From: an uncultured Actinomycetota bacterium
GTDB taxonomy: Bacteria; Actinomycetota; Actinomycetes; JAHEKZ01
Assembly (NCBI GenBank): GCA_963726755.1
Contig: CAVSDB010000002.1
Span: 154,889 to 218,888 of the forward strand
DNA length: 64,000 nucleotides
Direction: 5' to 3'
Positions 18,149 to 53,774 of the stretch are shown here, piece by piece. The translations under genes were made by a program, and so were the position numbers. The notes under the pieces were generated by a model. The model saw only the letters and a program-made list of their open reading frames with translations. It was not told the DNA's origin and made no database searches. Numbering within the stretch: position 1 is the stretch's first letter; each line of letters opens with the position of its first letter.

Positions 18149-19656
18149 GAGCCGGACGTGCGCTCAAGAATGAGTTCTCGGACCCGGGCTGCGTCCGCCT
18201 GACCTCGCGTGGCTTTCATGACAGCGCCGACGATGGCGCCGGCTGCTTGCGTCTTGCCGCTTCTGATCTTGTCGGCGACGTCGGGTGAGGCGGCCAAGCG
18301 CCTCGTCGATCGCAGCGAGTAGCGCTCCGTCGTCCGACACCACCTGCAAGCCACGTGCGGCAACGACCTCGTCTGGCGTGCCTTCGCCCTCGATGACGCC
18401 CTCGATCACCTGGCGGGCGAGTTTGTCGTTGAGTGCACCACTCGCGACGATCTCGACCACGCGTGCCACGTCCGCCGGTGTGATGGGTACCTCAGCAAGA
18501 TCGATCGACCGCTCGTTGGCAACACGAGCGATCTCGCCAGTCCACCACTTGCGGGCACTCGCCTGATCGGCACCGAGCTCAATGGTGCGTTCGACGAGTT
18601 CGACTCCCCCGGCGTTGACCAACGACTGCATGTCGTGGTCGCTGATTCCCCACTCGTCACGCAGTCGTTGGCGACGTTGCAGCGGTGGTTCTGGCAGCGT
18701 CGCGCGCAACTCGTCGACCCACTCGTCACTGGGCGCGACGGGAACCAGATCAGGTTCAGGGAAGTAGCGGTAGTCCTCCGACTCCTCCTTGATCCGTCCA
18801 GACGTGGTGCTGCCGTCGTTCTCGTGGAAGTGACGGGTCTCCTGAACGATCGAACCGCCCGATGCGAGACACCGCTGCCTGTCTGCGGATCTCGTGATTG
18901 ACTGCGCGCTCAACCGATCGCATCGAGTTGACGTTCTTCGTCTCGGTGCGCGTTCCGAGTTCGGACGAGCCCTTGGGCTTGAGTGAGAGGTTTGCGTCCA
19001 CTCGCATCGAGCCTTGGTGCATGTGAGCGTCTGAAACGCCCAGCGCGACGATCAGTTCACGCAGTTCATTCGCATACGCCCTTGCCACTGCGGGGGCGAT
19101 CTTCGGATCGACCTCGATCGTCTTGGTGACGATTTCGATCAACGGCACGCCCGCACGGTTGTAGTCGACCAACGAATAGTCGGCACCCTGGATACGTCCG
19201 GTGGCACCCACCGACGTGCGTCGACTTACCGGTGTCTTCCTCCATGTGCGCGCGTTCAATTTCGACGCGAACCGTCGTTGGCCCTTTCTCGGTATCAAGA
19301 GAAATGTCGAGATAGCCATCGAACGCGATCGGCTCGTCGTACTGCGAAGTCTGGAAGTCCTTGGGCATGTCTGGGTAGAAGTAGTTCTTGCGCGCGAACC
19401 TCGACCACGGCGCGATGGAGCAGTTCAGCGCCAGCCCGATCCGGATCGCGGACTCAACCGCCTTCGCGTTGACCACGGGCAGCGCACCTGGCAGACCAAG
19501 GCAAACCGGACAGACCTGAGTGTTCGGATCGGCACCGAACTCGGTGGGACAGCCGCAGAACATCTTCGACGCTGTGTTGAGTTCGACGTGGACCTCTAGC
19601 CCCATAACCGGGTCGAAGGTGTCGATGGCCGCATCGAAGTCCATGAGTTCGGTCAT
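18145..19656 (-). CDS. gatB: Asp-tRNA(Asn)/Glu-tRNA(Gln) amidotransferase subunit B, two frameshifts
   Basis: N-terminus [28 protein letters not shown] is in ORF 19066..19704. The middle is in 18756..19319 and the C-terminal GatB/YqeY domain in 18164..18913 and 18145..18363. Confidence 0.8.
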
Positions 19657-21159
19657 CGGGCTGCCTCCAACTGCGGAGCTTTCGACAGCAATGGAGCGCC
19701 CCAACGTTCGAGCAGCGCCTGTTCTAGCGCGGCGGCGGCGCGGTACACCAGGTCGTCGCGCTGGACGGCGGCCATGATCTGCACGCCGACCGGTAGATCG
19801 TCATCGCCGAGACCGCCGGGCAGGCTCATGGCCGGGCCGCCGTACAGGGACGACGGCAAGCGTGGCCAGATCCGCCTTGTACATCGCGACCGGATCGTCA
19901 ACGCGGGCGCCGAGTTTGAACGCGACCGTGGGCGTGGTCGGCGACATCAGAACGTCAACGGTCGAGTAGGCGGCCTCGAAGTCGCGACGGATCAGCGTCC
20001 GGACCTTCTGCGCTTGGCCGTAGTAGGCGTCGTAGTAGCCGGCCGAGAGCGCATACGTACCGAGCATGATCCGTCGCTTAACCTCGGCGCCGAAGCCCGC
20101 TGCCCGGGTCATGGCCATCACCTGCTCGACGCTGTGTTCGCCGTCGTCGCCGGTGCGCAAGCCGTACCGCATACCGTCGAAGCGGGCCAAGTTGCTGGAG
20201 CACTCGCTCGGCGCGATCAGGTAGTACGCGGGTAGCGCGTAGTCGAAGGCCGGGCACGAGACCTCGTGGACCTGCGCGCCGAGTTCCTCGACGAGCGCGA
20301 CTGCTTCGTCGAAGCGTGCCTGCACGCCCGGTTCGTAACCTTCGCCTTGCAGTTCCTTGACGACACCGATGCGGAGTCCGGCCAGTCCCCCGTGCTCGCC
20401 GCGAGCAGCAGCAACGACGGCTGGTACCGGCGCGTCGATGGACGTCGCGTCCATCGGGTCCTTGCCCGCGATGACCTCGTGCAGCAACGCGGCGTCCAGA
20501 ACCGTCCGAGCAAACGGTCCAGCCTGGTCGAGTGACGACGAGAAAGCGACCAAGCCGTAGCGCGAGACGCCGCCGTACGTCGGCTTCATCCCGACGATTC
20601 CGGTCACCGACGCCGGTTGCCGGATCGAGCCTCCGGTGTCGGTGCCGATGCCGAGCGGCGCTTCGAACCCCGCCACCGCGGCGCTTGAGCCACCCGACGA
20701 CCCGCCGGGGATCCGCTCGAGGTCCCAGGGGTTCGACGTCGGACCGTACGCGGAGTTCTCGGTCGAAGAGCCCATGGCGAACTCGTCCATGTTGGTCTTG
20801 CCGAGAATGATCACCCCGGCGTCGCGGAGTCGCTTGGTGACGGTCGCGTCGTACGGGGGTCGCCAGCCTTCGAGGATCCGCGAGCCGCACGTAGTAGGGA
20901 TGCCCTTGGTAGCGATCACGTCCTTGAGCGCCAGCGGGACTCCCGCGAGTGGGCCGCGCTGGTCGTTGCCGAGGGCGTCGACGGCACGTGCCGCGTCCAG
21001 CGCCCCTTCGGAGTCGACGTGCAGAAAGGCGTGGAGCCGTCCGTCGACCTGGTCGATCCGGTCCAGATGTGCCTGCGTCACCTCGACCGCCGAGGTCTGT
21101 CCGTCCTTGACGGCGGTCGCGAGCTCGTCCGCTGTCAGCTGCGTGAGGTCAGTCGACAC
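19653..21159 (-). CDS. gatA: Glutamyl-tRNA(Gln) amidotransferase subunit A, C-terminal frameshift near 19850
   Basis: Amidase signature [13 protein letters not shown] is in ORF 19801..21159. The C-terminal tail is in ORF 19653..19901. Confidence 0.85.
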
Positions 21160-21162
21160 CGA

Positions 21163-21459
21163 CTACTCCTCGTCCAGGATTCGCGGAACCCGGAACCGGT
21201 TGTCCTCAGCTGCCGGTGCAGCGGCGAGGGCCTCGTCCGCCGTCAGGCACGGCCCGATTTCGTCCGGGCGAGTCACGTTGACGACCGGAACGGCGTGAGT
21301 CGTGGGGGGTACGTCGTCCGCCGCCACTTCGGAGACCCGGGCCACCGCCCCGAGGATCACCTCGAGTTGCGTCCCCAGATGCGCCAGCTCGTCGTCGGTG
21401 AGATCGAGCCTGGATAACCGCGCCAAGTGCGCGACTTCGGCGGGACTGAGGGAGGGCAT
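21163..21459 (-). CDS. gatC: Glutamyl-tRNA(Gln) amidotransferase subunit C
   Basis: 98-aa [28 protein letters not shown]... directly upstream of gatA. Confidence 0.88.
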
Positions 21460-21607
21460 ACCTAGCCTTCAGGGGGCATTGGGGAGACGCCGATGGACGC
21501 GCCCATCCTAGGCAGTCCTCCATTTCCTAAGAACGACGCGTTCTCCCCTTCTCACGCAACAAACTCCCTATTCATCCTGTGGATGCTGCGGCATCCACAA
21601 CCTCAGT

Positions 21608-21633
21608 CCTGTGGAGGCCGCGGCCTCCACAGG
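21608..21633. repeat. Perfect 26-bp palindrome CCTGTGGAGGCCGCGGCCTCCACAGG
   Basis: Equals its own reverse complement. An identical copy lies at 52969..52994. Confidence 0.9.
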
Positions 21634-21642
21634 CAAAAGGGA

Positions 21643-21668
21643 CCTGTGGATCCCGCGGGATCCACAGG
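21643..21668. repeat. Perfect 26-bp palindrome CCTGTGGATCCCGCGGGATCCACAGG
   Basis: Equals its own reverse complement. An identical copy lies at 52907..52932. Confidence 0.9.
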
Positions 21669-21712: not shown

Positions 21713-23920
21713 CTAGCCGGCTTCGCCGCCTCTTAGGAGGCGGAGGGCTCGCTGTTGCGATGGGTGGCGCAGCAACCAGGTGGTTGCGGACTCACCGTCG
21801 AGCGGGCGACTGACGTACCAACCCTGGATCGCATCGCAGCCGAGTTCGTCGAGCAAGTCCCAGACCTGCTGGGTCTCGACACCTTCGGCGACTGCGCTCA
21901 TGCCCAGACCGTGGGCCAGATCGATGATCGACCGGACGATGGTCACGTCCTCGGAGTCGAGGGTGAGCCGAGAAACGAAGCTGCGGTCGATCTTCAGTTC
22001 AGTGATCGGCATCCGCTTCAGCAGCACCATGGACGAGTACCCGGTGCCGAAGTCGTCGAGGGAACTGGTGACACCGAGTTCACGCAGCGCGCCAAGGGTC
22101 CCCGCGACCTCGTCGGAGTCTCTGGTCAGCACGCGTTCGGTGAGTTCGAGGATGAGCATCGAGGCCGGCACGTCGTGCTTCTCCAGTGCGTCGCTGACCA
22201 CCTTCAGCAGGTCGCCGCTGTGAAGGTCGCGCATCGACACGTTGACGGCGACCGGAACGTGCAAGCCCGCTTGCCGCCAGCGAGCGACCTGCTCGAGCGA
22301 GCGGTCGATCACGTACGCGGTAAGCGGCCCCATCAGCCCCGAGTGCTCGGCCATGGGAATGAAGTCGTCGGGCATCACCAGGCCACGCAGAGGGTGGTGC
22401 CAGCGGACCAGCGCCTCGACGCCGACGACGGCGCCACTCCCGACGGACACCTTGGGCTGGAAGTGGACCTTGAGTTCCTCGTTTTCGAGCCCGTTGCGCA
22501 GACCACCAAGCAACGCGAGTCGCCCAGCGGAGTTCTTGTCGCGGTCAGCGGCGTAAACCTCGACGCCGGTGCGCTCTTCCTTGGCCAGGTACATGGCGAC
22601 GTCGGCTCGTCGGACTATGGGCTCGACGTCTTGGCCGTGCTCGGGGAACACAGCGACGCCAACGCTTGCCTCAAGTTCGAAGAGCATGCCCTCAAGGTGG
22701 AATGGCCTGGTCAGCGCCTCGCGTACCCGCTGCGCGACCTCAACCGCCGCGTCGCAGTCACGGACGGGGTCGAGCAGGACGGCGAACTCGTCACCACCCA
22801 GTCGCGCGACGACGTCTCGGGGACGGAGCGCGCCCTTGATGCGCTGAGCGACCACAGCCAGCAGTCGGTCGCCGACATGGTGGCCGAGCGTGTCGTTGAC
22901 CTCTTTGAACCGGTCAAGGTCGAGCAGGCAGAACCCGACGCTGGTGCCGTTTCGGCGGGCATCCTCGATGGAGTCACCGAGCCGACTCAGCACCATCTTG
23001 CGGTTCGGCAGCCCGGTCAGTGAGTCATGCAGCGACTGGTGCTCCTTCTCACGCGAGATGGACGCCGTTAGGTACACCGCGTAGAGCGGTAGCAGCAGCA
23101 GCGGCAGGTAGACCGGTTCGGCAGCGACGAAGACGACCAGCGGGGACAGCGCGAGCACGGCGAACGTAGTCACGAAGAAGTAGCCAAGCTCGTTGAAAAA
23201 CTCTTCGTGGAACTTGTGACCGTCGCTGGCGGCCAACGTGCACACGAGAGCGTTGTTCACCATGAAGAAGGCAAACCAACCCGAGACGACCCAGATCAAG
23301 TCGCTCGCGACCAAGCCGACCGCGGGGTCGGCAAGCGTGGGCATGCTGACGCCGTCGTAGGCATACCAACCGGCCATGATCGCGGCGGCCGAACCCGCGC
23401 TGATCGTGTACTGACCCACGTTGAACGGAACTTTCCAGGGAGCCTTGCGTCGGGCGATTTCAGCGATGAGGGTTGCGATCGCGAGGAACATCAGCGCTGG
23501 CCACGGGCCGTAGAGGTACATCGCGGCGAACACGAATGCGTGGCTGGTTACGACACCCTGCGGGTCATACCCACCGGCAGCAACGACAGGGCGCAACTCG
23601 CCGAGGAGAATGAGCCCGGCAACCATCCAGAAGGCGGCTGGCGCTTGTGACATCTGCGGGACGGTCTGAACCGCAGCCCAAACAGCCAAAGACACACCGA
23701 CGATGACCGAGAACCACCAACCGACCGCGAACAACGACCACTCGGCGAGCGACGGACGACCTGAGTCCTCGTCTTCGGGCAGCCACGATTCATCGGGTGT
23801 TGCGACACCACCGGGCGCGGTGGTTCCACCGGGCGTTTCGGTCATCACCCACCCTTGCCTTCGTCGACCCGTCTTGAGGCTTTTCGGTCGTGGGCCTGCC
23901 CCAACAGGTCCGGACGTCAC
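21713..23920 (-). CDS. Membrane-anchored GGDEF-EAL protein (diguanylate cyclase/phosphodiesterase)
   Basis: Multi-TM N-terminal region. The GGDEF domain has RLGGDEFAVLL. The EAL domain has ELKIDRSFV and an EGVETQ-type motif. The start could instead be MTETPGG at 23845. Confidence 0.85.
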   Translation of the reverse strand: MTSGPVGAGPRPKSLKTGRRRQGWVMTETPGGTTAPGGVATPDESWLPEDEDSGRPSLAEWSLFAVGWWFSVIVGVSLAVWAAVQTVPQMSQAPAAFWMVAGLILLGELRPVVAAGGYDPQGVVTSHAFVFAAMYLYGPWPALMFLAIATLIAEIARRKAPWKVPFNVGQYTISAGSAAAIMAGWYAYDGVSMPTLADPAVGLVASDLIWVVSGWFAFFMVNNALVCTLAASDGHKFHEEFFNELGYFFVTTFAVLALSPLVVFVAAEPVYLPLLLLPLYAVYLTASISREKEHQSLHDSLTGLPNRKMVLSRLGDSIEDARRNGTSVGFCLLDLDRFKEVNDTLGHHVGDRLLAVVAQRIKGALRPRDVVARLGGDEFAVLLDPVRDCDAAVEVAQRVREALTRPFHLEGMLFELEASVGVAVFPEHGQDVEPIVRRADVAMYLAKEERTGVEVYAADRDKNSAGRLALLGGLRNGLENEELKVHFQPKVSVGSGAVVGVEALVRWHHPLRGLVMPDDFIPMAEHSGLMGPLTAYVIDRSLEQVARWRQAGLHVPVAVNVSMRDLHSGDLLKVVSDALEKHDVPASMLILELTERVLTRDSDEVAGTLGALRELGVTSSLDDFGTGYSSMVLLKRMPITELKIDRSFVSRLTLDSEDVTIVRSIIDLAHGLGMSAVAEGVETQQVWDLLDELGCDAIQGWYVSRPLDGESATTWLLRHPSQQRALRLLRGGEAG

Positions 23921-49041: not shown

Positions 49042-49081
49042 CGCGAACTGTCGCTGAGCCGCCGACTTTCCCACTCCCGGC

Positions 49082-49133
49082 CAAGTTGCTAGGCGAAACG
49101 GGCGCTATAGCGCCCGTTTTGCCTAGCAACTTC
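49082..49133. terminator. Bidirectional intrinsic terminator (52-bp near-perfect hairpin) between convergent ccr and hydrolase genes
   Basis: CAAGTTGCTAGGCGAAACGGGCGC-TATA-GCGCCCGTTTTGCCTAGCAACTTC. GC-rich stem with a T-run on the plus side. Confidence 0.65.
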
Positions 49134-49191
49134 GCCGGAATGGTCGGTGGCTAGTCGGCGACGCGGGCGAGCAGGTCGCTGAGGGCGGTCG

Positions 49192-50798: not shown

Positions 50799-51092
50799 TC
50801 AATCGCACTCGCCCGCGATGGTCTCTTCAGGCCAGACGACGACGTGCGGCGTCGCCGGCGGGATCTCCTGGTCGCAGCCTGGGCAGCGATAGTCCTTGGT
50901 CGACGTCGACCCTCGGATCGGTGAGACGACCCAGACCTCGCCCTGCCACTCGACCGTCTGTTGGGTCTTGACCGGCGACGGAGGTCGTCCCTTGGGACGA
51001 CGTCGGCTCACGACCGTCCCGCAACTACGCGTAGACGCGGAAGCCGCGGCCGGACTTGCGACCGAGGTACCCGGCCGTGACCAGGTGCTCAA
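50799..51092 (-). CDS. Small hypothetical protein with CPGC motif
   Basis: ORF ...DYRCPGCDQEIPPATPHVVVWPEETIAGECD. Low confidence; the start is unclear. Confidence 0.2.
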   Translation of the reverse strand: MSTWSRPGTSVASPAAASASTRSCGTVVSRRRPKGRPPSPVKTQQTVEWQGEVWVVSPIRGSTSTKDYRCPGCDQEIPPATPHVVVWPEETIAGECD

Positions 51093-52801
51093 GCAGCGGA
51101 GCTGGCGCGAAGCCGGGCTCGCGGAACTCCAGGTAGAGCGTCCGCTGGATAGCTAGTGCCACGTCGAGCCCGACAACGTCGAGCAGTTCGAACGGACCCA
51201 TCGGGATATCCGCAGCCGACCTTCATCGCGTTGTCAATGTCGTCGGTGGTCGCGTAGTGAGCCTGCAACATGCGCACCGCGTCATTGAGGTACGGGAACA
51301 ACAGCGCGTTGACGATGAATCCAGCGCGGTCTCCGCACGTGACGGGATGCTTGTCCATCCGCTCGCATACTGCACGTACCGACGCGGCAACGCGCTCGCT
51401 GGTGTTGACCGTTTGCACGACCTCGACCAACTTCATGACTGGCGCGGGATTGAAGAAGTGCATCCCAACGACGTCAGGCATCCGGTTCGTCGCTGCGGCA
51501 ATCTCAACGACCGGCAGGCTGGACGTCGTTGTCGCAAGAATGGCGCTCGGCTTCGCAATCTCGTCGAGCGTGGCGAAGATCGCCTGCTTGACGGTGAGCT
51601 CCTCGACGGTTGCTTCGACGAACAAGTCGCAGTCCGCGAGATCGTCGAACGACGTGCTCCCCGCGATGCGCCCAATCGCAGCGTCGCGATCCTTCTCGTC
51701 CAATTTCCCGCGGACGACGGCCTTCTCAAGTGATCGAGCGATGGCGGCCTTGGCTTTCGCGATCTGCTCTTCGCCCCGCGCACGCAGCACAACGTCGAAG
51801 CCGGCCTTGGCGAAAACCTCTGCGATACCGACGGCCATCGTCCCCGAACCGATGACGCCCACCCGCTGGATGGGGATCAGGTCCTGTTCGGCCGCGTCGA
51901 CCGAAGGAGTTCCCGCGTCGGGCACAACGGCCGGTGAGTCAGGGGTCTCGTAGGTGTAGAAACCACGTCCGGTCTTGCGACCATTCATTCCGGCGGTGAC
52001 CATCTGCTTGATGATCGGCGTCGGCGCGTGCAACCGGTCGCGGGTTTGCTTGTACATCGTGTCGAGAATCTCGTACGCAGTGTCGAGCCCGATCAGATCG
52101 AGCAACGCCAGCGGACCCATGGGCAATCCGCAGCCGAGTTTCATCGCCGCGTCGATGTCTTCGCGTGTCGCGTAGCGCTGCTCGTACATCGATGCAGCGT
52201 GATTGAGGTAGCCAAAGAGCAGTGCGTTAGCAATGAACCCTGCCTTGTCACCGACCACGACCGGCACTTTGCCAAGACGTTCGACAAGCGCTTTGGTGTC
52301 GTCGATGACCGAGACATCGGTGACCACCGTGCGAATGACCTCGACGAGTTTGAGCACCGGGGCGGGGTTGAAGAAGTGAAGTCCGATGACCTGTGCTGGT
52401 CGGTGAGTCGATACCGAGATCTCGGTCACCGAAAGGGACGACGTATTCGTGGCCAGGATCTGCGTCGGGACCAGTGATGGCATCCAGCTGAGCAAAGATC
52501 TGCTGCTTCAACTCGAGCTTCTCAGGGACAGCTTCGACGACCAGACTGCAGTCCGCCAGGTCGTTCATCGACGTGCTGAATGTAATGCGATCGAAGATTC
52601 CCTGCTTTTCGTCGTCCGACATCTTCCCGCGCTTCACCGCACGCGAAGTGGACGATTCGACGTGCCCCACACCGCGCTGAAGCGAGTCATCGCCGGTCTC
52701 AACGGCCACTACCTCAAGGCCTGCCGAGCGAAGACTTCGACTATCCCGGCACCCATCGTGCCGAGGCCGACGACGCCAACTTTGGTGAACTCGCGAGTCA
52801 T
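51089..52801 (-). CDS. Tandem (duplicated) 3-hydroxyacyl-CoA dehydrogenase, at least 3 frameshifts
   Basis: Unit 1: MTREFTKVGVVGLGTMGAGI... at 52801, with its C-terminal domain in the 51089..52495 frame. Unit 2 (VGVIGSGTMAVGIAEV...NPAPVMKLVEV...) follows in the same ORF after a linker. Confidence 0.7.
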
Positions 52802-52906
52802 GAACGATCTCCCTGCGACCTGCTGCCCCGGCTCCCGAGGCAGGAATGATCCTCGCATCCGCAGCCCCGCAGGACTCGACCGGGGCGGCGTCTCCCTCGG
52901 GCTCCA

Positions 52907-53020
52907 GCCTGTGGATCCCGCGGGATCCACAGGTGACAAATCGCCCACAGTCCGTCGGTTGATCCACAGCCTGTGGAGGCCGCGGCCTCCACAGGCACGC
53001 AATCCAACAATGCATCCACA
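52907..53020. repeat. Second cluster of CCTGTGGA-N10-TCCACAGG palindromes plus extra TCCACAG half-sites
   Basis: Perfect 26-mers at 52907..52932 and 52969..52994, identical to those at 21643 and 21608. Additional half-sites GATCCACAG (52960), CCCACAG (52944) and GCATCCACAA (53011). Confidence 0.85.
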
Positions 53021-53096
53021 AGAATGCGTCAGCAGCCGCCAAGTGTCAGCCGCCTCACGATTGGTCGCCGCCGCTGGCCGGACATACTGATGCCCT

Positions 53097-53774
53097 ATGC
53101 GCCTGGTCATTGCCCGCTGCAGCGTCGACTACACGGGTCGGCTGACCGCTCATCTCCCCCTCGCAACCCGGCTCATCCTCGTGAAGGCGGACGGCTCGGT
53201 ATCGATTCACGCGGACGACCGCGCGTACAAACCATTGAACTGGATGAGCCCGCCCTGTCGAACGACCGAGGACACCGACGACGCCGGGATCGGAACTTGG
53301 ACCGTGATTCATCAAAAGACCGGCGATCAACTGGTCATCACCCTCGAGGAAGTGTTGAGCGATGACTCCCACGAACTCGGAGTCGATCCCGGGCTGCAGA
53401 AGGACGGCGTCGAAGCGCACTTGCAAGCGCTCCTCGCCACGCACATCCAGACACTGGGAGACGGTTGGACGTTGGTGCGCCGCGAGTACGGCACCGCGAT
53501 CGGTCCAGTGGACATCCTGGCCAAGGACGGGTCCGGGAAGAGCGTCGCCATCGAAATCAAGCGCCGGGGAGATATCGACGGGGTTGAGCAGTTGACGCGA
53601 TACCTCGAATTGCTCAACCGCGACCCACTGCTGAGTCCGGTCAGCGGAATCTTCGCCGCTCAGGAGATCAAGCCGCAGGCTCGCGTTCTGGCCGAGGACC
53701 GGGGGATCCGCTGCGTCACGCTCGACTACGACGCCCTGCGCGGACGCATTGATCCCAGCCTGCGGCTGTTCTAG
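53097..53774 (+). CDS. nucS: Endonuclease NucS (EndoMS, mismatch-specific)
   Basis: [16 protein letters not shown]... N-terminal dimerisation domain and C-terminal RecB-like nuclease (GPVDILAKD...AIEIK); intact 225 aa. Confidence 0.88.

Follow-up and report, generated by a model that had tools for sequence, protein, structure and literature searches.

We analysed two clusters of perfect 26-nt palindromes in a 64-kb stretch of DNA (the window) from an uncultured lineage of Actinomycetes, and conclude, with a probability of roughly 0.55, that the palindromic units form a small, lineage-restricted and low-copy family of hairpin repeats, similar in kind to the repetitive extragenic palindromes (REP) and bacterial interspersed mosaic elements (BIME) or to the TRIT repeats. 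One cluster (locus 1) lies in the spacer between a gene for a GGDEF-EAL protein and gatC, and the other (locus 2) between the divergent starts of a tandem 3-hydroxyacyl-CoA dehydrogenase gene (fadB-like) and nucS. The window contains five CCTGTGGA-N10-TCCACAGG palindromes against 0.21 expected, a number reached in none of 100 shuffles when the 64 kb were searched for CTGTGGA-N10-TCCACAG with up to two mismatches. All five fall in the two clusters, at 21576-21668 and 52908-52995, and 10 of the window's 13 TCCACAG heptamers sit in the two loci. A covariance model (R1) built from 12 family members and run with filters off found no additional copy across the window. Throughout, statements on copy number cover the 64-kb window, about 70 kb of relatives and the reference genomes. 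The palindromic units are:

52908-52933 (locus 2) and 21643-21668 (locus 1), no strand: P-A, CCTGTGGATCCCGCGGGATCCACAGG
52970-52995 (locus 2) and 21608-21633 (locus 1), no strand: core 26-mer of P-B, CCTGTGGAGGCCGCGGCCTCCACAGG
52969-52996: P-B as a perfect 28-mer, GCCTGTGGAGGCCGCGGCCTCCACAGGC, with one extra complementary base on each side
21576-21601: P-C, CCTGTGGATGCTGCGGCATCCACAAC, the third unit, present at locus 1 only

An earlier reading of this DNA (the original prediction) had claimed that both 26-mers recur exactly at the second locus in reversed order, and direct reading of the sequence confirmed this. The positions that it gave for the palindromes were essentially right, being off by one (52908 rather than 52907 for the first palindrome of locus 2, and 53012 rather than 53011 for the half-site that follows). 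The order of unit types, C-B-A, is common to both loci, with locus 2 read as the reverse complement. Between the loci the P-A and P-B units share 26-29 nt apiece and the intervening spacers are unalignable, so that identity does not reach beyond the hairpins.

Each unit consists of a stem of 11-12 bp and a 4-nt loop (CGCG in P-A), and since the units are perfect palindromes the same hairpin is expected in transcripts of either strand. The computed folds reach -23.2 kcal/mol (z -4.5) as RNA and -12.3 kcal/mol as DNA for P-A, which scores 47.7 bits with R1; -27.6 kcal/mol (z -5.6) and -15.7 kcal/mol for P-B; and -15.0 and -9.9 kcal/mol for P-C. The foot of each unit is invariant, with CCTGTGGA(T) paired to (A)TCCACAGG, and the apex is free yet always self-complementary. 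When 12 units were aligned, the outer eight pairs proved essentially invariant (a foot of 8-9 bp) and the three apical pairs were found to covary, the variants being TCC/GGA, GGC/GCC, TGC/GCA, TTC/GAA and TCA/TGA, plus a CAGCTG centre. Across the 12 units 96% of the cells are paired, compared with 35-44% in slid controls, and the covariation score of 0.245 (0.066 in shuffles) was reached by none of 500 shuffles. Judged from these sequences, chance cannot account for a symmetric centre in all variants, of which there are at least six; either self-complementarity is selected for, as a hairpin or a cruciform, or copying goes via the hairpin. A dimeric protein reading two half-sites does not require a symmetric apex, and the compensation among the inner bases of the units points to a constraint on the hairpin rather than to half-site reading.

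Similar units were found in other collections. Scanning JGI metagenomes for CCTGTGGA-N3-YGCG-N3-TCCACAGG returned 12 stretches, five of which (L182, L184, L185, L189 and L192; L numbers designate the fetched loci) look like family members, several of them being perfectly palindromic, alike in design and situated on G+C-rich contigs, four of which come from samples presumed to be soil. In L182 there are two units, at a distance of 55 nt, with the apices TGCCGCGGCA and TTCAGCTGAA, the units of L184, L189 and L192 carry TTCCGCGGAA, and that of L185 carries TCACGCGTGA. L182, L189 and L192 share flanks and apparently represent one orthologous locus, in which the hairpins differ by double substitutions that preserve pairing. 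Going by the profile of G+C at third codon positions (GC3), the L185 hairpin lies between convergent genes and the gene context of L182, L189 and L192 is ambiguous, and a Pfam scan of the soil contigs gave little. The L184 member (CCTGTGGATTCCGCGGAATCCACAGG, L184:579-604) appears inside an open frame of 394 codons with GC3 in the same frame on both sides, which might reflect either an insertion in frame or a pair of neighbouring genes not separated by a stop; Pfam had no match for this frame. Among 185,579 species-representative genomes, searched for CTGTGGA-N3-YGCG-N3-TCCACA, 96 stretches matched, which is about the estimated chance number; no reference genome had more than two matches to this YGCG-centred pattern and none looked family-like save a near-miss in L135.

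The history of the two loci can be traced by comparison with related assemblies. At locus 2 the features are:

51089-52801, minus strand: tandem 3-hydroxyacyl-CoA dehydrogenase (fadB-like) gene, ATG at 52801-52799, frameshifted in the assembly
52903-53022, no strand: inserted segment of about 120 nt, missing from the orthologous spacer of L199/L200 in the alignment
52945-52951, plus strand: degenerate half-site CCCACAG, found by sequence reading
52961-52969, plus strand: isolated half-site GATCCACAG, with the same sequence as the right arm of P-A
53012-53021, plus strand: half-site GCATCCACAA, equal to the right arm of P-C, followed by GAATGC to 53027
53097-53774, plus strand: nucS, for the 225-aa endonuclease NucS, ATG at 53097, with Pfam NucS_N and NucS_C on all homologues

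The fadB-nucS spacer measures 295 bp in the window, where it holds P-A, P-B and an apparent remnant of P-C. It measures 105 bp in L196/L197 (NucS 88% identical) and 142 bp in L199/L200 (86%), with no palindromes in any of them; L180 (89%), also without palindromes, has another gene between fadB and nucS. In the alignment the left ~100 bp of the spacer (the 5' region of the fadB-like gene) and its right, nucS-proximal ~70 bp are shared, L196/L197 align to the window without 52902-53095, and no heptamer pair was found in the relatives. On this comparison the locus-2 cluster is a lineage-specific insertion. An intact 603-aa orthologue of the tandem dehydrogenase is present in L199.

Much of what had been said of locus 2 beforehand was borne out. 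The flanking gene starts (minus-strand 52801 and plus-strand 53097) are right and conserved in relatives; the 36-nt spacer between the two palindromes (52934-52969) is indeed unrelated to locus 1 and carries both CCCACAG and GATCCACAG; the half-site GCATCCACAA does match the right arm of the third palindrome of locus 1; and the density of heptamers within ~115 bp stood up to counting, with five exact and two one-off copies. What did not hold is the suggestion that a distal pair of arms (CCCGAGG at 52834-52840 and CCTCGGG at 52895-52901) brackets the element, since both arms precede the first palindrome, within a segment that palindrome-free relatives also have.

The GATCCACAG half-site adjoins P-B tail to tail (TCCACAG-C-CTGTGGA); when the plus strand is folded to minimum free energy, this half-site pairs with the left arm of P-A, which offers an alternative to the P-A hairpin. 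The GAATGC that follows GCATCCACAA matches, in a pairwise alignment of the loci, the ATGAATGC flank adjoining the outer hairpin of locus 1, and together GCATCCACAA and GAATGC look like what is left of a third module, P-C. A scan of the fadB-nucS spacer for sigma-70-type consensus promoters gave no match.

Locus 1 is larger and more ordered, and comprises the following features:

21163-21459, minus strand: gatC, 98 aa, whose homologues carry PF02686
21558-21686, no strand: locus 1 composite, with outer inverted arms AACAAACTC-N3-ATTCAT around P-C, P-B and P-A
21713-23920, minus strand: GGDEF-EAL gene, whose stop codon precedes locus 1 and whose L201 orthologue is annotated GGDEF + EAL

Read along the minus strand, the composite spans from 27 nt past the GGDEF-EAL stop codon to 98 nt before the gatC ATG. 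Its outer arms are 42 nt long and 86% complementary, and the segment 21550-21695 folds as a single long hairpin with P-B at its tip (-95.8 kcal/mol, z -10.5). The spacer upstream of gatC is 253 bp long in the window, with three units; 177 bp in L201 (GatC 89%), with one decayed unit, AACAAACTCCGCATTCAT-GCTGGGGATTCCGCGGAACCACGG, that has the same AACAAACTC..ATTCAT flank as in the window; 103 bp in L203 (GatC 81%) and 68 bp in L204-L207 (GatC 79%), with no trace of the element in either L203 or L204-L207. Read against these spacers, the locus-1 cluster is a lineage-specific gain, apparently followed by growth. The short-read Illumina contig L202, from a strain with 97% GatC identity, has P-B unchanged in the same context, and its P-C differs by four substitutions in 26 nt within flanks almost identical to those of the window; because L202 carries P-B and a degenerate P-C, the locus-1 element is not an assembly artefact.

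The L202 contig starts at the first base of P-B (L202:1-26), which is the centre of the 140-nt quasi-palindrome, and the L181 contig, with an identical nucS, begins 38 nt upstream of that gene; clusters of G+C-rich perfect hairpins coincide with contig ends in short-read assemblies. In addition, every relative examined preserves a block (G)CC(T/G)TAGGATG at 38-47 nt before the gatC ATG (window 21480-21500; L201:9950-9970; L203/L204 around 1440-1460), a putative -10 element of the gatC promoter. On the upstream side, the insertion with the palindromes stops about 12 nt short of this block, which would place the putative -35 region inside the inserted sequence.

Since both clusters were gained in the window lineage relative to its relatives, they are not inherited cis-regulatory elements of the neighbouring genes. 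This bears directly on the idea that a dedicated dimeric transcription factor uses the palindromes as operators, with a small regulon that takes in gatCAB and the divergent fadB-like gene/nucS pair, which we regard as quite unlikely. Its attractions are that both loci carry the same perfect palindromes, whose outer half-sites do not vary from organism to organism; that locus 2 lies between divergent genes and locus 1 just upstream of the putative -10 block before gatC; and that so few copies would be less surprising in a regulon than in a selfish repeat. However, the orthologous promoters of L196/L197, L199/L200 and L180 (86-89% identity) and the gatC promoters of L203-L207 (79-81%) do without the sites, the L185 site lies between convergent gene ends, and no regulator gene is adjacent. 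Moreover, the central 8 bp vary freely and are self-complementary in every variant, a symmetry that a reader of half-sites does not need, and three tandem copies 32-35 bp apart within one 140-nt quasi-palindrome would be atypical of operators.

A second idea, that the element is a classical miniature inverted-repeat transposable element (MITE), that is, a derivative of an insertion sequence with terminal inverted repeats that was moved in trans, appears highly improbable. The 42-nt outer arms of locus 1 with their 86% complementarity, the size of about 130 nt and the fact that both loci are insertions relative to relatives all fit it. Locus 2 lacks outer arms and has only the GAATGC remnant, however, and at locus 1 the homology with L201 continues past the arms, so the arms are not termini. 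Neither is there a clean target-site duplication at locus 1, where the boundaries read ..CTCACGC/AACAAAC and GTTTGTT/CACGAGC (flanks CACGC and CACGA), and at locus 2 the boundaries are not sharp; the similarity of the two loci is confined to the hairpins, no transposase was found among 40 of the larger open reading frames (ORFs) of the window, and there was no plasmid or phage match (blastn, mode 'distant', with locus 1 against phage and plasmid collections). The original prediction had offered a mobile element or an operator as the explanation of the identical 26-mers, and the checks that it proposed for the former, target-site duplications and terminal inverted repeats, came out negative. 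Its premise that identical 26-mers at two loci demand either dispersal or recognition was sound; dispersal as such is upheld by clusters that are absent or much smaller in relatives, and neither the MITE nor the regulon operator is.

For the repeat-family reading, the most parsimonious order of events would be gain near gatC, inverted duplication and copying to the fadB-nucS spacer. A composite or a single unit would first have inserted between the GGDEF-EAL gene and gatC in a common ancestor of the window lineage and L201, and the locus-1 composite would then have grown by inverted duplication into a quasi-palindrome of 130-140 nt. Later, P-A, P-B and the P-C remnant would have been copied to the fadB-nucS spacer as a ~120-nt insertion midway through the divergent promoter region. 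The identity islands between the loci measure just 26-29 nt, and the spread would have been unit by unit, mediated by an agent that recognises the foot of the hairpin, as the REP-associated tyrosine transposase (RAYT) recognises REP, or alternatively by hairpin-limited gene conversion. The intact P-A and P-B, set against the decayed P-C and the relic in L201, suggest that some units may be kept by selection or conversion.

As to effects, the units of locus 1 would place a 3' stem-loop on the GGDEF-EAL transcript, where it might act as a stabiliser of the RNA end or as a transcription road-block before the gatC promoter. Those of locus 2 are most likely tolerated passengers upstream of both promoters; more speculatively, they could extrude as cruciforms and absorb the negative supercoiling of divergent transcription, or dock a protein that reads the foot. 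Such a traceable history would make this a compact case of how hairpin modules spread and perturb the promoters of core genes (gatCAB, nucS).

REP and BIME (REPIN) elements are mobilised by RAYT (TnpA-REP) Y1 transposases, whose genes usually have REP on their flanks. They are short hairpin-forming palindromes (20-40 nt) of extragenic DNA, found alone or grouped into mosaics (PMC6006769, PMC3733652). They come in several types with a conserved stem base and a variable apex, and their presence or absence varies between related genomes (PMC6006769, PMC3733652). The units described here are likewise intergenic hairpins, with a stem of 11-12 bp and a 4-nt loop (2-5 nt in REP), clustered, conserved at the stem base and variable at the apex, and differing in presence or absence between relatives. 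They are unlike REP in that the palindromes are perfect rather than imperfect, and in that only a handful of copies is apparent compared with the tens to hundreds of classical REP and TRIT. TRIT, the Tuberculosis Rho-independent terminator, is a genus-restricted family described from Mycobacterium, with 147 copies in one genome within a narrow distance around stop codons; it is conserved in sequence and structure, its palindromic form makes it bidirectional, and it has been proposed that a factor binds the motif in double-stranded form (PMC3152330). Our units resemble TRIT as an actinobacterial family of palindromic hairpins conserved in both sequence and structure and differ from it in their unrelated sequence and in their two known clusters, one of which lies between divergent start codons; the placement at gene ends typical of TRIT is seen at locus 1 (27 nt after a stop codon) and in L185 (between convergent genes) and not at locus 2. 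Most descriptions of dispersed palindromic repeat families come from Proteobacteria, and the only well-described actinobacterial analogue that we could document is the TRIT of Mycobacterium. The REP descriptions in PMC6006769 and PMC3733652 do not mention Actinobacteria, and our literature searches on the motif, and on REP or RAYT in Actinobacteria, found nothing specific.

Several observations weigh against this family reading. REP are defined by a fully paired basal stem of 7-20 nt with GTAG or GTGG 0-2 nt 5' of the hairpin (PMC6006769), and no unpaired 5' GTAG or GTGG accompanies our units: the bases 5' of the stems vary among copies (cag, agt, gga, tca), and the sole GTGG of the unit is paired inside the stem, so that taking it as the tag would leave a stem of only 4 bp. 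The solitary 9-mer and 10-mer half-sites at locus 2 cannot form hairpins, which suggests that the 9-10-nt box is itself a unit. The identity of P-A and P-B between the loci needs selection or gene conversion, and a purely selfish element does not explain it. Copy number appears low, with two clusters in 64 kb, at most two matches in any reference genome and 12 JGI stretches, and the ~70 kb of relatives contained no copy apart from the L201 relic. Finally, a Pfam scan of the 40 larger ORFs of the window revealed no RAYT, Y1 or other transposase.

Known RNA and repeat classes were also compared. No part of the window matched Rfam 15 at the gathering threshold, and E-value scans of the two loci returned only sub-threshold generic hairpins (miRNA precursors), with only a tRNA in the related loci. 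A CRISPR array was rejected, as neighbouring units differ and the spacers measure 6-9 nt at locus 1 and a single 36 nt at locus 2, and so was an integron attC site, as the locus 1 ends AACAAAC...GTTTGTT do not fit RYYYAAC/GTTRRRY.

We consider it very unlikely that the palindromes are purely functional RNA hairpins, acting as factor-independent or factor-assisted terminators or attenuators, that came to resemble one another through convergence or local duplication rather than dispersal. In favour of this view, the stems have high stability and read alike on both strands, L185 has its hairpin between convergent genes and locus 1 begins 27 nt past a stop codon, the alcohol dehydrogenase gene of the window is followed by a 62-nt hairpin of unrelated sequence, and the mycobacterial TRIT shows that terminator-like palindromes of conserved sequence exist in Actinobacteria (PMC3152330). 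On the other hand, a terminator scan of 52300-53500 found none, the bases that follow the stems (tgacaaa, cacgcaa) contain no U-tract, and locus 2 lies upstream of both start codons, so an intrinsic terminator was rejected and the earlier claim that the element cannot be only a terminator proved sound. In addition, a terminator would need no foot that is invariant across loci and organisms, and the relatives manage without hairpins at the same gene ends.

Another rival stems from the likeness of the foot to the DnaA box. The foot (A)TCCACAGG, which can also be written ATCCACAGG, matches the DnaA box over positions 3-9 together with the flank preferred on the 3' side, and coincides with nine contiguous positions of the actinobacterial box plus flank. 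In the dnaA/oriC region of Nocardiopsis sinuspersici (L177) there are 35 TCCACA sites with the extended consensus gTT(G/A)TCCACAGG, 29 of them with G at +1 and 22 with G at +2. The reference matches from Nocardiopsis lie between rnpA or yidC and dnaA and read TGTGGAC(A/G)(A/G)-CGCG-T(T/C)GTCCACA, that is, boxes placed head to head. These comparisons raise the possibility, unlikely in our view, that the heptamers are DnaA boxes, the palindromes weak head-to-head pairs of them and the loci clusters outside oriC, which could titrate DnaA, regulate the neighbouring genes or show a double-stranded box on a hairpin of single-stranded DNA.

Apart from the match of the foot to box core and flank, and the geometry TGTGGA-N3-CGCG-N3-TCCACA that recurs in the dnaA promoter region of several Nocardiopsis species, this explanation gains from the density of boxes, each locus having six or seven within 92-115 bp, and from the solitary half-sites of locus 2, which suit a box recognised singly and, given the likeness to the box, could possibly bind a protein. 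Extra boxes within 80 nt also accompany the TTGTCCACA-type palindromes in the Nocardiopsis dnaA/oriC region (L100, L110, L167, L177), the Nocardioides and MFD palindromes described below (L105, L117, L161) and a Geopseudomonas match (L170), and a foot that is invariant across several lineages fits a universally conserved binding protein. Positions 1-2 of the DnaA box are conserved in real boxes and contacted by DnaA. In the units, however, the TT of these positions is not conserved, being replaced by GG, GC, GA or TG, and no box at either locus lies within one mismatch of TTGTCCACA; TGATCCACA (52961-52969) alone is one mismatch from TTATCCACA, the other boxes being two away. The consensus used was that of Nocardiopsis or the general one, which may differ from the oriC boxes of the host itself. 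Moreover, the inner bases are always symmetric here and need not be so in bona fide pairs, such as CTGTGGACAGCGCGTCGTCCACAG in Nocardiopsis, the match in geometry is partly imposed by the search pattern, and the soil members L184, L185, L189 and L192 are solitary hairpins without extra boxes.

DnaA-box pairs and clusters, as known from the actinobacterial dnaA promoter and oriC and from datA and the DnaA-box clusters of E. coli and B. subtilis, share with the units the TCCACA core with its G(G) flank and the occurrence of several boxes within ~100 bp; unlike them, the two loci are not near dnaA or oriC and lack the TT of positions 1-2. The A site of the ABC primosome is a hairpin of single-stranded DNA with a DnaA box in its stem, from plasmid R6K, and was studied in E. 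coli. As a lead only, the units resemble it in being stem-loops whose stem displays a DnaA-box-like sequence, and they differ in that the A site is a plasmid priming signal. A hairpin with a DnaA box in the stem reportedly acts as a DnaA-dependent priming signal, as Masai, Nomura and Arai are said to have found in 1990 (J Biol Chem).

Palindromes that carry the consensus box were encountered in Nocardioides koreensis and two MFD metagenome-assembled genomes (MAGs) of Actinomycetota, as a perfect palindrome of ~60 nt, (G)ATAGTCCGTSACG-YTTYKG-CTGTGGACAACGCGTTGTCCACAG-...-CGTSACGGACTAY, located at L105:5140-5203, L143:5434-5497, L117:516-570, L161:7853-7916 and L107:2907-2970. Two consensus DnaA boxes in head-to-head arrangement make up its apex, GTAG is present on one strand, the differences between genera are compensatory, and an extra TCCACAG box lies within 50 nt at three of the five loci; no description of it was found. 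Like the units of the window these palindromes are intergenic with the apex CTGTGGA-N3-CGCG-N3-TCCACAG, and they are multi-copy within a genome; they differ in their consensus TTGTCCACA boxes and in stems that are ~20 bp longer (TAGTCCGTSACG...), and their outer parts share no sequence with the units. It is a doubtful but appealing proposal that the units and these TTGTCCACA-bearing palindromes of Nocardioides and other Actinomycetota together form an unrecognised class of dispersed actinobacterial elements that displays a DnaA box on a hairpin. Hairpins or cruciforms of this kind, extruded on single-stranded or supercoiled DNA, would offer the box in double-stranded form and could recruit DnaA or titrate it away from oriC, for priming or restart in the manner of the A site or for control of initiation in the manner of datA. 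If true, the foot would tie dispersed hairpin repeats to the replication initiator, which would be of wider interest.

In the viral sequences of IMG/VR the N10 pattern gave 83 matches, AT-rich TTTTCCACAGG pairs of another kind in which TTTTCCACAGG is a perfect DnaA box, and the YGCG-centred pattern gave two matches, both unrelated. Many of the AT-rich contigs (L001-L083) carry CCTGTGGAAAAC..TTTTCCACAGG palindromes, made of two perfect DnaA boxes, and these adjoin runs of 9-14 TCCACAG boxes spaced ~21 nt apart (L037:9579-9744, L047:10455-10641, L050:7120-7306), which look like phage origins or DnaA-titrating arrays.

As for the host, the window has a G+C content of ~63% and was assembled from error-prone long reads, and the best named homologues of its NucS and GatC come from uncultured 'Actinomycetes bacterium' MAGs. 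Its genes are of the housekeeping kind: ilv and leu, ligA, gatCAB, electron transfer flavoprotein, methylmalonyl-CoA mutase, thiolase, nucS and a two-component system. Frameshifts split gatA, gatB and the tandem 3-hydroxyacyl-CoA dehydrogenase gene (51089-52801, 19066-21159 and elsewhere), and ilvD and leuA are apparently frameshifted as well, with truncated Pfam matches. The same fragmentation occurs in the related 'contig_NNNN' assemblies (L180, L201), and the genes of the short-read relative L199 are intact; the frameshifts are most likely indel errors of long reads and not pseudogenes.

Finally, the 62-nt hairpin mentioned above is a near-perfect palindrome at 49077-49138, composed of two 31-nt arms with no spacer and 94% complementarity, that lies 37 nt past the stop codon of a zinc-type alcohol dehydrogenase gene. 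It is unrelated to the CCTGTGGA family, its 14-nt core matched once among the fetched loci, in the unrelated L113, and the DNA fold of 49070-49145 reaches -35.7 kcal/mol (z -10.6).

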